A stretch of DNA of 25,205 nucleotides, taken from a virus. Lineage: Duplodnaviria > Heunggongvirae > Uroviricota > Caudoviricetes. The notes beneath the pieces were generated by a model, which worked only from the letters and a program-made list of their open reading frames with translations, did not search any database and was not told the DNA's origin. How positions within the stretch are numbered: the stretch's first letter is position 1; each line of letters begins with the position of its first letter. Positions 3,229-23,668 of this stretch are shown in pieces. The DNA lies in IMG/VR virus record IMGVR_UViG_2541047688_000007, positions 1 through 25,205 of that record; one strand, written 5' to 3'. Position numbers and translations under genes: made by a program.

Positions 3229-3304
3229 TGGTGGCCCTTGCTGGATTTGAACCAGCGACCTGGCGATTATGAGTCGCTCGCTCTCACCACTGAGCTAAAG
3301 GGCC
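3229..3304 (-). tRNA. ileZ: tRNA-Ile2 (anticodon CAU, lysidine-type; formally Met-like anticodon)
   Basis: Minus-strand cloverleaf GGCCCTT...AAGGGCC acceptor, anticodon loop CTCATAA (CAU), T-arm GCTGG-TTCAAAT-CCAGC, encoded CCA; very similar by eye to E. coli ileX-type tRNA. Confidence 0.8.
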
Positions 3305-4567: not shown

Positions 4568-4751
4568 GTCTGTAACAACCGAACTGATAGTCTGCCAGAC
4601 CCGCCATAACCAGCTGGGTCAGTATTAACTGGCAGCGTTCGCGTGAAAGGTAAGTATTCTGCGCTATCTCCCCGACTGTCGCCGGTTCGGTAACGCTTAA
4701 TTCATTAAACACTACTCTGGCGGTTTCTGTCATATCCTGCTGTTTTAGCAT
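4554..4751 (-). CDS. small winged-helix/HTH-like DNA-binding protein (65 aa), hypothetical regulator
   Basis: Internal ATG at 4749-4751 with AAGGGA SD; MLKQQDMTETARVVFNELSVTEPATVGEIAQNTYLSRERCQLILTQLVMAGLADYQFGCYRRLPQ has an HTH-like core; the 144-aa track form has a low-quality N-terminal extension running through a terminator and the neighbouring promoter. Confidence 0.45.
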   Translation of the reverse strand: MLKQQDMTETARVVFNELSVTEPATVGEIAQNTYLSRERCQLILTQLVMAGLADYQFGCYRRLPQ

Positions 4752-4874
4752 GTCTTTTTCCCTTTTCCGGTTAACGTGACACACCAATAACTCTTGTCGA
4801 AAAAGCCAGCAAGCTGAAAGACAGGTATTCGCAACCACCAGCACGTTTAACGTACTGCGCCGTTTTTCGGACAC

Positions 4875-4895
4875 AAAAAACCGCCTGGCGGCGGG
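4875..4895 (-). terminator. rho-independent terminator-like hairpin (minus strand)
   Basis: Minus-strand CCGCC-GCCA-GGCGG hairpin followed by TTTTTT (plus-strand A6 at 4875-4880). Confidence 0.35.
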
Positions 4896-4943
4896 TTTAA
4901 GCTGTGTGGCGTAGTAACCACTCTTAACACGATATAATATTTT

Positions 4944-4972
4944 TTGCGTACGCGTTATAGTTTTCTTACAAT
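4944..4972 (+). promoter_or_regulatory. candidate sigma70 promoter for the DUF262-HEPN operon
   Basis: TTGCGT (4944-4949), 17-bp spacer, TACAAT (4967-4972), about 30 nt upstream of the AAAGGAAC SD and ATG at 5005. Confidence 0.45.
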
Positions 4973-5004
4973 CTATTTCCAACTCCAATTAAAGGAACAG
5001 TGAT

Positions 5005-6162
5005 ATGACCACACTCAAAGAACTCAAAGAAGAGCTTGCTCAGATTCAAGATGAAAACGCGAAAAATAGAAAAAAAGCTGAAATTGCAGCCTTGGTCACT
5101 TCTGCCGACAACGAGATTAGGCTTGCTCAGAGAAATATTGGATACAACGTACGTGAATGGACCGTTGAATTAATTGTACAAAAGTATGGCAATAATCTTG
5201 AAACTGACAAAAACGAACTTTTTATTCCTGATTATCAACGCGATTACAAATGGGATATCAAAACAGCCTCTCGATTCATCGAAAGTATATTATTAGATTT
5301 TCCAATCCCGTACCTCTACATCTCCGACGTATTTAATGAAGATCCTGAGTTGGATGGTCGTGTAGAAATTATTGACGGTTCACAAAGGATTCGCTCAATT
5401 TACTACTTTTGGAACAATCAGTTTGAATTGAAAGACTTAAAAGAACTCAAAAGTTTAGAGGGCTTCAAATTTTCAGATCTTTTGGCTAGCCGCCAGAGGC
5501 GATTTTTAAGGGCATCACTAAGATTTATTGAATTGAAAGGTGATGTTGAGGAGCAGCATAGAAGAGATTTATTCGAAAGAATAAATTCAGGTGTTAAGAG
5601 ACTGGAAGCGATGGAGGTTAGACATGGTTCAGATGCGGCCACTTCAATTTTCTATAGGGATGTTGTGACTCCTTGCTCAACAAATCCACTTTTCGCTAGT
5701 CTAGCTCCATTATCAGATCGGAAACGTTCGAATGGCGATCATCGTGAGTTAGTTTTGAGATTTTTTGCATACTTAAATGATTTAGAAAATTATAAGGGTT
5801 ATGTCGCTCCTTTTATTGACAATTATCTTAATGTTCAGGCCGAAAGGGTCACACAACAAGATGTAGACAAATTTAAACATGATTTTGAAAGCATGCTTGC
5901 TTTTGTAGATGCTCATTTCCCTATGGGGTTTAAAAAGACACCAACAAGCAAAACCACCCCCCGTGCTAGATACGAAGCCATAGCAGTGGGAACTGCTCTT
6001 GCCTTAAAAGCCAATCCACATCTACAGGCTCCGGTTATTCCTGTAGGAGACTGGCTGTTTGGGGAGGAATTTGAAACCATAGTTACTGCTGATAGTGCCA
6101 ACAACACCAGCCAACTCAAAAACAGAATATTTTATGTCAAAGATAAATTATTAGGAATGTAA
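5005..6162 (+). CDS. DUF262 (ParB/Srx-like) domain protein, GmrS-type N-terminal module without recognisable DUF1524 nuclease domain
   Basis: 385-aa ORF; DUF262 signatures FIPDYQRDYKW and IIDGSQRIRS (DGQQR-type motif); no His-Me finger motif seen in C-terminal half; AT-rich codon usage. Confidence 0.75.
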   Translation: MTTLKELKEELAQIQDENAKNRKKAEIAALVTSADNEIRLAQRNIGYNVREWTVELIVQKYGNNLETDKNELFIPDYQRDYKWDIKTASRFIESILLDFPIPYLYISDVFNEDPELDGRVEIIDGSQRIRSIYYFWNNQFELKDLKELKSLEGFKFSDLLASRQRRFLRASLRFIELKGDVEEQHRRDLFERINSGVKRLEAMEVRHGSDAATSIFYRDVVTPCSTNPLFASLAPLSDRKRSNGDHRELVLRFFAYLNDLENYKGYVAPFIDNYLNVQAERVTQQDVDKFKHDFESMLAFVDAHFPMGFKKTPTSKTTPRARYEAIAVGTALALKANPHLQAPVIPVGDWLFGEEFETIVTADSANNTSQLKNRIFYVKDKLLGM

Positions 6163-6164
6163 CT

Positions 6165-6854
6165 ATGAGTTTGATTGATTTAAGAGATGAATACGAAGAA
6201 AGAGCAAGAGATATTATGGAATTGCTTTCTCTTGCGTCATCTTTAGAGGCTCAGACTCAGCAGTTAGATCAGCAAACGCATAAAGATGAAATAGAATCAA
6301 ATACCCTTAGGGTTAACATTTTAAAATCATCCGTGCACATGATGCTGTACAATCAGGTTGAAAACACTGCCAGAGGATGCATTGAGTCAATTTATGACCA
6401 TTTGCAAGATAATGAAGTAAATTACGCATCACTCAGGGAGAAATTCCAAGTAAATATCTTGCACCGTATCATTTCAGATAATGAATCGGGAAAATCTCTT
6501 TATCAAAAAATTGGTTCCGATATATCTAAAAGGATCATTTCAGCCTCATTAAACATACGTAAAGAATTCAATGGTAATGTTTGCAAGTCTGTATTGCACA
6601 AAATAACACAAGCTTACGGAATAACTGTTGCAAACTCACCAGAGTGTAGAAATGGTGTTGACTTAGATTTACTTAAAGATATCAGAAATGAGCTGGCACA
6701 TGGAAGTACCAGCTTTTCTAAAAAAGGTCAAATAGACCCTTTAGAAGAAGTCAAATCGAGGTCAGAAAGAATTGATCTATATTTGCGTTTATTAATCAAC
6801 TCAACAGAAAATTATATTACCTCTAACGGGTATTTATCCCCTCAACATGTCTGA
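6165..6854 (+). CDS. HEPN-like domain protein (putative RNase/abortive-infection effector)
   Basis: 229-aa ORF starting 2 nt after the DUF262 stop; C-terminal R-x4-H-G motif DIRNELAHG (residues ~174-180) typical of HEPN superfamily; assignment from motif only. Confidence 0.6.
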   Translation: MSLIDLRDEYEERARDIMELLSLASSLEAQTQQLDQQTHKDEIESNTLRVNILKSSVHMMLYNQVENTARGCIESIYDHLQDNEVNYASLREKFQVNILHRIISDNESGKSLYQKIGSDISKRIISASLNIRKEFNGNVCKSVLHKITQAYGITVANSPECRNGVDLDLLKDIRNELAHGSTSFSKKGQIDPLEEVKSRSERIDLYLRLLINSTENYITSNGYLSPQHV

Positions 6855-7863
6855 TAAATGTTTCCCCTATTATCTGACCAATTATAGGGGGAACAGCATT
6901 TCCAATCATTGTCCCCAATTTTTGGAATGAAAAAGGCGTCTCCTTGTCAAGGAATTTATAATCCATTGGAAAGGATTGCAAAATCGCAGCTTCACGCAAA
7001 GTTATGGCGCGATTTTGCTCAGGATGGCCAAATCGTCCATTTCCATATCCATAACACTGGGTAGTTATCGTAGGGCTAGTATCGTCCCAAACCATCCGTC
7101 CATAAACGCTTTTATAGGTAGCACCTGAATTCTTTTTATGACAGTCTGCTCTAATTTCTTCAGGCCAGTCATCCCACGTACCACCAGGTAAAGAATGCAT
7201 GATTCGTTTAAGATTGATATCCATCAATTTAGGCGAACGATGCAAGGGATCGCTTTCCAGCTTCTCACCTGCCCCTACTTTTGGCAACCTACCAATAGCA
7301 TCCTTAACAGTAACTTTACGGCTAACTTTTTTTTGATCAAGGCTGATCGGCCCCAATTGGGAACCAATTAGAATTAATCTACGTCTATTTTGAGGTAAGC
7401 CATACTCAGAACATCTTACAACGTCGTACCACAAATGATATCCAAGAGTCTTTAATGCACTAACAAACCCTTCAAAAACCTTATGGTTTCTAAGTTGAGG
7501 AACATTCTCCATCGTCACAAGCTCTGGCATTACATCACTTACAAGCCTTTGAAACTCATATAACAAACGCCACTTTGTATCGTCTTTACGGCTATTTGGA
7601 TTACGATACTTGGAAAACGGTTGGCAAGGAGCACATCCAGCAAGCAATCTAATATTTCCTTCCTTGAACATAGCAGACACATCGCAGGATTGCAGTTCTG
7701 TAACTGACTGATTAATGAACTGCGTTAAAGGATTATTGCTCTCAATAGCAAAACGGCAGGATTCATCAATATCAATACCATGAGAAACCTCAATCCCGGC
7801 TTTTTTTAGCCCAAAAGTTAAGCCCCCCGCACCACAAAAAATGTCTACTGCCTGAATGTTCAC
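6823..7863 (-). CDS. DNA (cytosine-5)-methyltransferase
   Basis: 346-aa ORF with C5-MTase motifs I (FCGAGG), IV (GCAPCQPFS, catalytic Cys), VI (ENV), QRRR and GNAV; GTG start at 7861-7863 with GGAG SD; 3' end overlaps HEPN gene by 32 bp (convergent). Confidence 0.9.
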   Translation of the reverse strand: MNIQAVDIFCGAGGLTFGLKKAGIEVSHGIDIDESCRFAIESNNPLTQFINQSVTELQSCDVSAMFKEGNIRLLAGCAPCQPFSKYRNPNSRKDDTKWRLLYEFQRLVSDVMPELVTMENVPQLRNHKVFEGFVSALKTLGYHLWYDVVRCSEYGLPQNRRRLILIGSQLGPISLDQKKVSRKVTVKDAIGRLPKVGAGEKLESDPLHRSPKLMDINLKRIMHSLPGGTWDDWPEEIRADCHKKNSGATYKSVYGRMVWDDTSPTITTQCYGYGNGRFGHPEQNRAITLREAAILQSFPMDYKFLDKETPFSFQKLGTMIGNAVPPIIGQIIGETFIRHVEGINTR

Positions 7864-7926
7864 AAGATTCTCCGTTACTTTATCCTGGTATTATATACAC
7901 ATAAAAGTTGGGAAAGTAGAACGATT

Positions 7927-8295
7927 TTACATAGAACTTAAGTCATTGTAGTAAATGAAAAATGACAAGCAGCCATCAATAAACCCCATTGCTGTTTGCA
8001 TCTCTTTCCGTATTGTTCCATCTGAACATTTCCGTTTTTTAGCAATAGCGCGTAATGAGATACCAATAACAAAGTGAGCAATGATCAACTCATACTCTTC
8101 GGGTTTATACTTTCGCAACCGAGCCACACAACCGTCTATCATGATACCTTCGTCATCATCACACTGGAGACGTGACTTTTTACCGTGTGGTAAAAGCCCC
8201 TTGAAGCCTGCTGCTATCGGCTGCCAGTCCACACCACTGTTATCTGCTGCAGCCCAGGCCCCCCAACGATCTAAAACTTCGTACATATCACGCAT
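7927..8295 (-). CDS. Q: late-gene antiterminator Q (phage 82/QuuD-like family)
   Basis: 122-aa ORF MRDMYEVLDRWGAWAAADNSGVDWQPIAAGFKGL... with Cys-rich zinc-binding-like region; resembles the small Q proteins of phage 82 and the DLP12 prophage as I recall them; last gene of the coupled early operon. Confidence 0.7.
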   Translation of the reverse strand: MRDMYEVLDRWGAWAAADNSGVDWQPIAAGFKGLLPHGKKSRLQCDDDEGIMIDGCVARLRKYKPEEYELIIAHFVIGISLRAIAKKRKCSDGTIRKEMQTAMGFIDGCLSFFIYYNDLSSM

Positions 8296-16585: not shown

Positions 16586-16763
16586 CATAATCGCCGCTTC
16601 GCCCTTCAAGGTACATGCGAACATTTTTATCAATCATTGCGGAAACAGTCTCAATATGAAAACACTTCTGAGACTCGCTATATAGCAGAACTGAAGTGGT
16701 TTACTGAATTTGGCCACCTGAACAGAGGTGATATGCTCACCTCAGAACAACACAGGTGCCATA

Positions 16764-17911
<1,148 letters not shown>

Positions 17912-22188: not shown

Positions 22189-22520
22189 AGAATGAATAAA
22201 GCATTTGAACGATGGGTCCACCAGCGTTACGGCAATCGCTATGACCTGACGCGAGATGTTGACGGCTTCTACTGTCGTGAAGTTGTGAAGCGAATGTTTG
22301 AAGTGTGGTGCCACTGCCGTGGGCTGAGTGTTGTGTGAGGTAATACATGGGCAATGTGATTCAACTGGCTCCCAATGAATGGGTTTGTGAAAGCGTTCTT
22401 ATCGCAATTACCGGGCTCAAACCAGGCACAATTCTTCGGGCCCGGAAATGAAGTGGTTTACTGAATTTGGCCACCTGAACAGAGGTGATATGCTCACCTC
22501 AGAACAACACAGGTGCCATA

Positions 22521-23668
<1,148 letters not shown>

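Follow-up and report, generated by a model that had tools for sequence, protein, structure and literature searches.

The stretch of DNA analyzed here (the window: 25,205 nucleotides, positions 1 to 25,205 of IMG/VR record IMGVR_UViG_2541047688_000007) comes from a lambdoid prophage of Escherichia coli and carries, next to the antiterminator gene Q, a three-gene cassette encoding a DUF262 protein, a small HEPN protein and, convergent with these, a C5 cytosine DNA methyltransferase (MTase). An earlier note, made from the sequence alone, had put this block forward as a candidate anti-phage defense module, a proposal that is supported by the domain profiles and intact motifs of the proteins, by their location in a cargo hotspot that can also hold a PD-Lambda-1-like gene, and by an architecture and HEPN clade shared with the defense system PD-T4-2. 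The DUF262-HEPN pair and the C5-methylase, which in this family is either convergent with the pair or immediately upstream of it, constitute one conserved mobile module.

Organization of the cassette

The cassette and its genes are as follows.

About 4958-7972, no strand: inserted cassette, consisting of promoter, DUF262, HEPN and C5-MTase genes and MTase leader (edges from flank similarity, the drop in GC content and whole-cassette presence in E. coli).
5005-6162, plus strand: DUF262 (ParB/Srx-fold NTPase) protein, 385 aa, NsnA-like; proposed DNA sensor (open reading frame (ORF), profile matches).
6165-6854, plus strand: HEPN protein of the MAE_28990 family, 229 aa; proposed RNase effector (ORF, Pfam).
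6823-7863, minus strand: C5 cytosine DNA methyltransferase, 346 aa, GTG start, Shine-Dalgarno GGAG at 7873-7870; proposed self-marking component (ORF, Pfam, PADLOC).
6823-6854, no strand: 32 bp shared by the 3' ends of the convergent HEPN and MTase genes (ORF coordinates).

On re-reading the sequence, the three ORFs of 385, 229 and 346 aa, the motifs quoted for them in the earlier note, the 2-nt gap and the 32-bp overlap were all present, and the block it had called AT-rich indeed has a GC content of 0.35–0.40 across positions ~4750-8000, against ~0.50–0.55 in the flanks. Matches to Stx/phiP27-type phage records end at 4929-4957 on the left and restart at 7973 on the right, and since this similarity is confined to the flanks, the insert spans approximately 4958-7972 with all three genes inside it. 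The HEPN ORF begins 2 nt past the DUF262 stop, a gap through which its translation is probably coupled to that of the upstream gene. At 6859-6895, starting 5 nt past the HEPN stop and within the 3' coding region of the MTase, is an inverted repeat of 15 nt with 87% complementarity and a loop of 7 nt, which may serve to terminate or process the convergent transcripts, or may be a coincidence of coding.

Domain content of the three proteins

The DUF262 protein comprises an N-terminal long helix, a ParB-DUF262 domain (residues ~45–200), and an all-helical C-terminal domain (~200–385), with the signature motifs FIPDYQRDYKW at residues 73–83 and IIDGSQRIRS at 122–131. Pfam recognized GmrSD_N/DUF262 at 1.1e-25, above the curated cutoff, and in the same search found neither DUF1524 nor any detectable nuclease domain, which bears out the earlier statement that this protein has no recognizable nuclease tail. 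Among PADLOC models, NsnA matched over residues 16–313 (5.6e-46, 155 bits), with PD-T4-2_A scoring below it over 72–336 (4.3e-27, 93 bits). A structural search returned BrxU and SspE as top matches, and a sequence search against solved structures gave nothing close (best 4e-4); NCBIfam holds no specific model for this protein or for the HEPN protein.

The HEPN protein was recognized by PF18737 (HEPN_MAE_28990) at 3.8e-16, with 60.4 bits against a cutoff of 26.8, and by RiboL-PSP-HEPN at 6.7e-8, also above cutoff. Its motif DIRNELAHG contains the Rx4H pair R174-H179, and both of these residues, together with N63, E66, G137 and N138, are invariant in 75 of 75 homologues, in line with the HEPN assignment made previously. 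Sequence searches of solved structures found no relative, and the PADLOC model PD-T4-2_B gave no match to this protein even at E ≤ 10.

The MTase, which converges on HEPN and is read in the same direction as Q and the lysis genes, matched Pfam DNA_methylase PF00145 (9.5e-54), TIGR00675 (6e-35), and the PADLOC models MTase_II (1.6e-87) and DrmMII (4e-85). All C5-MTase motifs are present, as expected of the complete convergent enzyme that had been described, and FxGxGG, PCQ (C80), ENV, QxRxR and GNAVP are kept in 47–49 of 49 homologues; from these profiles and catalytic motifs the protein is predicted to be an active, sequence-specific methyltransferase. Solved structures offered only generic C5-MTases (DNMT1, M.HaeIII). 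A Dcm-like CCWGG specificity is unsupported, as identity to E. coli Dcm is 27% and restricted to the catalytic half, with no similarity in the target recognition domain (TRD). Across the family alignments, the catalytic motifs of all three cassette proteins are kept.

Conservation of the triad across mobile elements

Contigs recovered with the HEPN and DUF262 proteins as queries always showed DUF262 followed by HEPN and then a convergent C5-MTase, with 3' ends that overlap or abut. These triads reside in unrelated elements, including a Pseudoalteromonas Tn7-like transposon, a Yersinia mollaretii prophage (again between Q and holin), Salmonella bongori prophages, a Vibrio owensii integrase/AlpA/VapE island, and a Pseudomonas locus adjoining McrBC. 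A species-level scan, in which a DUF262 profile was run against a single genome of each species, returned 80 loci, which we analyzed by ORF calling and iterated hidden Markov models built from the window proteins. Eleven loci were not assessable and three lacked an intact pair (two with DUF262 but no HEPN, one without a called DUF262 ORF), leaving 66 assessable DUF262-HEPN loci, of which 39 have an adjacent C5-MTase. In 30 of these the MTase is convergent and downstream, and in nine, from Bacteroidota, Verrucomicrobiota, Planctomycetota, Lentisphaerota and Deltaproteobacteria, it is co-directional and immediately upstream. Almost all convergent triads show overlap or near-abutment of HEPN and MTase (−86 to +26 nt). 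Pairing of DUF262 with HEPN is near-universal in the scanned loci, with a gene gap of −4 to +9 nt in most, and the pairwise identities of the two proteins co-vary (Spearman 0.84); this tight co-variation, together with the coupling of the genes, suggests a single sensor-effector unit.

Within E. coli the cassette (query 4958-7926) was found in 107 of 5426 complete genomes (~2%), whole in every one of the 107 and always chromosomal, and the same 5426 genomes contained neither the pair without the MTase nor the MTase without the pair. One allele, at ≥ 99% identity, occurs in 73 genomes, isolates of sequence type 131 (ST131) among them; the other, at 86.6%, occurs in 34 and sits in a different prophage of the yfdP-yfdR type (Q→MTase→[DUF262, HEPN]←holin). 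A third version, with 40% identity in DUF262, is found in the P2-like phage P24B2, where it occupies the variable region beside gene A, and in 3 (+4) E. coli genomes, and a fourth is carried by Moraxella phages Mcat24-32. In the four lambdoid contexts (two in E. coli, one each in Yersinia and S. bongori) the MTase points the same way as Q and the lysis genes, to which DUF262-HEPN is antisense. In the clade that holds the E. coli cassette, linkage to the MTase is obligate. It had been asked earlier whether the MTase was an unrelated orphan or a partner: as a conserved third component (39/66 loci, 107/107 E. coli genomes) it behaves as a partner, and the unrelated-orphan option is ruled out by its conserved linkage to DUF262-HEPN in unrelated elements.

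A methyltransferase subfamily with alternative partners

In 41 of 44 other triads the MTase is 45–79% identical to that of the window, nearly all at 45–59%, while identity falls to ~40% for DUF262 and ~25% for HEPN; the remaining three triad loci have an unrelated replacement C5-MTase (~28% identity). The TRD (MTase residues 170–250) averages 49% identity across triads and is conserved as well as the catalytic core, which points to one dedicated MTase subfamily. Judged from this conservation, the triad MTases probably recognize a single target.

A search from the MTase side placed 62 of the best 80 IMG/VR homologues in triads, some of them identical to the window. Sixteen of the non-triad loci could be assessed. 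In 11 of the 16 (L126, L127, L129, L136-L138, L140, L141, L162, L167, L168) the position of DUF262-HEPN is taken by a GHKL-ATPase protein of 650–760 aa, matched over its full length by a PADLOC type II restriction endonuclease (REase) model at 1e-91 and containing, by Pfam, HATPase_c_3 and a weak Shedu SduA_C nuclease region. These MTases are 51–57% identical to the window MTase, again including the TRD, and lie on phage or prophage contigs in a convergent or adjacent layout; some copies of this GHKL-MTase pair adjoin the P2 gpD tail gene. Three of the 16 carry Vsr and a NERD-helicase instead. In all these loci the MTase is as close to the window MTase, TRD included, as triad MTases are. Among the proteins of the window cassette no nuclease-fold protein, and hence no cognate REase, was found, and DUF262-HEPN fill the REase position. 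In their simplest reading, these gene neighborhoods suggest that the same 'M' is served by alternative 'R' modules, DUF262-HEPN in some loci and the GHKL restriction enzyme in others.

Prophage setting and regulatory sites

On the minus strand the prophage genes run DnaB, a small ORF, Q, C5-MTase, the antisense DUF262 and HEPN, a small TrmB-like ORF, an N6-MTase, three tRNAs, holin and lysozyme. The earlier note had placed the cassette within the Q-to-holin interval, which is correct, and had equated the site with the stx position, which is imprecise: in phiP27, stx2e lies one slot further, past the N6-MTase and tRNAs, so that the cassette is in the Q-to-holin cargo hotspot and not in the stx slot itself. 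Directly after Q, phiP27 has a gene (L22; locus L093 4067-5296) for a GIY-YIG protein that matches the C-terminal half of PD-Lambda-1 (2e-89), a validated defense gene, and the Stx1a phage Stx1_14040 has at this place (locus L094 1338-3445) three antisense ORFs of 350, 130 and 220 aa, for which a PADLOC search gave no match. Cargo thus varies from phage to phage in the slot directly downstream of Q, which is a hotspot for it.

Flanking and regulatory features, in order of position, are listed below.

4870-4894, minus strand: terminator-like GC hairpin and T-run on the late-gene strand, in the flank left of the cassette (sequence scan).
4944-4972, plus strand: putative sigma-70 promoter for the DUF262-HEPN operon, -35 TTGCGT (4944-4949), 17-nt spacer, -10 TACAAT (4967-4972) (sequence read).
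4992-4996, plus strand: Shine-Dalgarno AAGGA, 8 nt ahead of the ATG at 5005 (sequence read).
7890-7895, minus strand: -10-like perfect TATAAT that lies between the stop of Q (7927) and the start of the MTase, lacking a good -35 (sequence read).
7927-8295, minus strand: phage antiterminator Q, in the flank, outside the cassette (Pfam Phage_antitermQ 3.3e-47; RefSeq annotation).

The TTGCGT-17-TACAAT hexamers and the Shine-Dalgarno sequence ahead of DUF262 exist as reported, but 'near-consensus' overstated the promoter, which matches 8 of 12 consensus positions and was not listed by a promoter consensus scan of the region, where promoter-like sites were not in excess (5 vs 8.8 expected). Of three diverged cassettes compared, E. 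coli allele 2 and that of S. bongori retain both hexamers, and that of Yersinia retains them in part. Overlapping the -35, at 4946-4953, is the perfect palindrome GCGTACGC, a possible operator, which E. coli allele 2 and Yersinia retain and which differs in S. bongori. On the other side of the cassette, the TATAAT at 7890-7895, which the promoter scan did not detect, is a possible promoter of the MTase itself. The hairpin at 4870-4894 may be the late-operon tR', and beside it the stretch 4905-4957 is common to cassette-free Stx phages and the Yersinia prophage; a late promoter/terminator unit may lie left of the cassette, which would put the cargo between Q and pR'.

Two further observations concern the surrounding prophage. 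The tRNA at 3229-3304 is Met(CAT) by ARAGORN, and RefSeq calls the identical gene tRNA-Ile (ileZ-type, as in phiP27); with the two tRNA-Arg genes that come next it makes up the usual rare-codon tRNA set of Stx-type phages, and toxin genes are absent. An insertion sequence-like element is present in two identical copies (16688-17911 and 22445-23668, 5757 bp apart), each with ORFs of 112 and 272 aa; strain FAH, whose prophage region is otherwise identical, lacks both.

Proposed mechanism and alternatives

The reading that we favor, with a probability of about 0.45, is that the triad is an abortive-infection system resembling restriction-modification (R-M), in which the MTase would mark self DNA, DUF262 would read the mark, and HEPN would cut RNA. 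In such a system the C5-MTase would methylate the genomes of host and prophage at a fixed DNA motif, and the DUF262 protein, with its ParB-fold NTPase and helical, putatively DNA-binding domain but no nuclease, would scan DNA for that mark. Unmarked DNA, from an infecting phage or a plasmid, would make DUF262 change its conformation in a nucleotide-dependent way, which releases or activates the co-translated HEPN protein, and the HEPN dimer would then cleave tRNA or mRNA and halt translation, so that the outcome would be abortive infection or growth arrest and not DNA cleavage. In the lysogen, DUF262-HEPN would be expressed from its own promoter, antisense to phage lytic transcription, and the MTase, directly downstream of Q on the lytic strand, would be boosted during phage replication. 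We favor this reading because the triad is linked in unrelated elements and in two independent gene orders, because its MTase belongs to a dedicated subfamily that elsewhere has a type II REase in the same position, and because of the all-or-none presence in E. coli, the conserved catalytic motifs, the co-variation of DUF262 with HEPN, the convergent layout, and the precedents of PD-T4-2, a proven DUF262-HEPN defense pair, and of SspE, a DUF262 protein that works with a host modification and causes growth arrest when that modification is missing (PMC12707154). A more specific version, which we hold somewhat more tentatively, is an epigenetically gated abortive infection in which the C5-methylase writes, the nuclease-less DUF262 reads and HEPN executes, the pair having been swapped into the slot of a type II REase.

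Several observations weigh against an R-M-like mechanism, chiefly the first and fourth of those that follow. First, 27 of the 66 assessable pairs (41%) lack a C5-MTase for at least 1.2 kb to each side. These are mostly from filamentous cyanobacteria (the Nostocales loci L054, L056, L059, L062, L075 and L076 among them; also L046/L048), where their place among housekeeping genes (aconitase B upstream, ClpB, ABC1 kinase) is conserved, unlike the mobile contexts of other loci. Second, in the Peduovirus P24B2 (L090 2355-2370) the MTase is frameshifted in a G8 run, with DUF262-HEPN intact; E. coli chromosomal copies of this cassette type are shorter by one base and have an MTase annotated as intact, so that the frameshift may reflect either an error in sequencing or a phase-variable tract. 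Third, the characterized DUF262 sensors (GmrSD, BrxU, and probably Dazbog) detect modified, not unmodified, DNA (PMC10952713). Fourth, a two-gene DUF262-HEPN clone, that of PD-T4-2, is non-toxic in MG1655 and protects against T-even phages, and its genes are needed for T4 resistance in the native strain (PMC9519451); as this pair is active and harmless without a methylase, DUF262-HEPN need not respond to unmethylated host DNA. Finally, the target motif of the MTase could not be inferred from solved structures or from the Dcm comparison, and the AlphaFold2 model of the HEPN protein is helical with moderate confidence and gave an uninformative fold search.

Alternatively, the pair may act in the manner of PD-T4-2 or a type IV enzyme, with DUF262 sensing modified or phage-specific DNA (hydroxymethylcytosine or glucosylated hydroxymethylcytosine of T-even phages, or foreign methylation) and switching on HEPN, while a co-travelling MTase shielded the element from host restriction and was unneeded for self-tolerance. 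The methylase-free action of PD-T4-2 on T-even phages, the preference of known DUF262 sensors for modified DNA, and the many family loci without an adjacent MTase all suit this explanation, as do solitary copies of the same MTase subfamily that stand beside Vsr or RNR genes in viral contigs. It leaves unexplained, however, why, in different phyla and kinds of element and in both gene orders, the pair keeps one MTase subfamily, why its position is taken elsewhere by a type II REase, and why E. coli never has the pair or the MTase singly; we consider it unlikely, though the best placed of the alternatives.

A two-pronged arrangement resembling PrrC is improbable. Following Anantharaman et al. 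2013, who regarded HEPN genes in R-M loci as second-line suicide RNases in a 'multi-pronged defense' (PMC3710099), the ParB/DUF262 protein would here be a DNA-nicking restriction component working with the methylase, and HEPN a latent suicide RNase, freed when a phage inhibits or overwhelms restriction. This is what was predicted in 2013 for HEPN genes located within R-M loci, DNA nicking by some ParB/Srx proteins is cited in one report (PMC12839542), and the PADLOC REase_II model PDLC03418 weakly matches DUF262 proteins of the family. Against this, DUF262 is the NTPase sensor in GmrSD, BrxU and SspE, where cleavage is carried out by DUF1524 (PMC10952713). In addition, the window DUF262 protein has no detectable nuclease domain, and its co-variation and coupling with HEPN suggest a sensor and effector acting as one unit.

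Least probable is an addiction module, in which the triad would mainly stabilize its mobile element, loss of the methylase gene leaving DNA unmethylated and longer-lived DUF262-HEPN killing the segregant, with any anti-phage effect secondary: type II R-M systems are known to behave in this way, and the all-or-none presence in E. coli, carriage by many kinds of mobile element and convergent, R-M-like layout are all compatible with it, but it overlaps mechanistically with the R-M-like reading and is compatible with defense, the relative PD-T4-2 is proven to defend in its native strain, and the module is located in defense hotspots.

If the R-M-like reading is true, methylation-based self/non-self discrimination would be wired to an RNase abortive-infection effector via a ParB-type sensor, linking two large classes of bacterial immunity, and its modular exchange with a type II REase would show how such systems evolve. 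The triad would then also provide a tractable model for what nuclease-less DUF262 domains sense, a question shared by PD-T4-2, Menshen and Dazbog, all of which have DUF262 without DUF1524 and are described in reviews as mechanistically uncharacterized (PMC12065111, PMC10952713). Being present in ~2% of complete E. coli genomes, ST131 included, and on temperate phages of several genera, the cassette may affect the host range of phages used in therapy as well as prophage-mediated superinfection exclusion.

Comparison with known systems

The earlier note could not assign the arrangement to a named system, and in this respect it has been superseded. PD-T4-2 (Vassallo et al. 2022, E. coli ECOR65), a DUF262 and HEPN system, is the closest one with a name, and the novelty of the window pair is lowered accordingly, as the note had itself foreseen among its grounds for refutation. 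Both are two-gene operons of the E. coli accessory genome, in which the gene for a DUF262 protein without DUF1524 precedes that for a small HEPN protein, a member of the RiboL-PSP/MAE_28990 clade, and the PD-T4-2_A profile matches the window DUF262. We judged the relation from PADLOC profiles and the published HHpred tables, in which the PD-T4-2 HEPN protein matches RiboL-PSP at 97.8% and MAE_28990 at 96.9% (PMC9519451); in the same study a PD-T4-2B H127A strain was built, and the conserved residues mutagenized were reported to be essential for protection (PMC9519451). PD-T4-2 differs in that it was cloned and works without a methylase, whereas the window cassette has its MTase, and in that its two ORFs span 1540 bp, compared to 1850 bp in the window, making its HEPN protein much shorter. 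Moreover, the PD-T4-2_B profile misses the window HEPN protein, and the window DUF262 scores higher with NsnA than with PD-T4-2_A, which makes it a relative but not a clear member of the PD-T4-2 A component.

NsnA belongs to Menshen (NsnABC, Millman et al. 2022), and its ParB-DUF262 domain with a helical ParBDB-type domain is the closest to the window DUF262 (PMC12065111); the proposed logic of sensor and RNase effector is likewise analogous. Menshen, however, has NsnB, an ABC-ATPase, and NsnC, an inactive PIN domain with an effector, where the window has HEPN and a methylase, and identity with Menshen is ruled out by the absence of NsnB and NsnC matches. PADLOC at this locus would call neither PD-T4-2 (no B match) nor Menshen, and Dzb models for Dazbog were absent among its matches. 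The authors of the Menshen study considered that a methylase-linked ParB-DUF262 possibly targets non-modified DNA (PMC12065111).

With GmrSD, BrxU and SspE the cassette shares the DUF262 NTPase fold and its DGxQR pocket, BrxU and SspE being the top structural matches, but those enzymes have a DUF1524/His-Me nuclease where the window has a separate HEPN effector, and a GmrSD-type enzyme split in two is ruled out by the lack of DUF1524. SspE is also alike in pairing a DUF262 protein with a host DNA modification, which is phosphorothioation in its case and C5-methylation here. Type II R-M systems with a GHKL-ATPase REase have the same MTase subfamily, TRD included, and the same convergent or adjacent layout, and differ in having a single REase_II-type partner of 650–760 aa in place of DUF262 and HEPN. 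In PrrC-EcoprrI a HEPN anticodon nuclease is similarly embedded in, and regulated by, an R-M locus; PrrC, however, is an ABC-ATPase-HEPN fusion in a type Ic hsd operon with a working DNA endonuclease, and the window has neither hsd nor endonuclease.

The MAE_28990-ParB-methylase operon recorded by Anantharaman et al. 2013 has the same three components and HEPN family, so that the window agrees with its description, and two Microcystis aeruginosa loci (L025, L028) show the same convergent triad. That record is one row of a table (Table 1), derived from comparative genomics, with no name or experiment and with no mechanism other than the general multi-pronged idea of R-M plus HEPN, and it reads the ParB protein as a nuclease. 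Our literature search found no experimental study of, or name for, the methylase-coupled DUF262-HEPN triad. Taken together, these comparisons identify the triad as a methylase-coupled form of a known DUF262-HEPN architecture, not a new kind of system: it was recorded bioinformatically in 2013, and its two-gene form has been validated as PD-T4-2. The new element lies in the evidence that the methylase forms a dedicated and integral part of the module, and that DUF262-HEPN stand in the slot of a restriction enzyme, from which a specific and testable mechanistic hypothesis arises.

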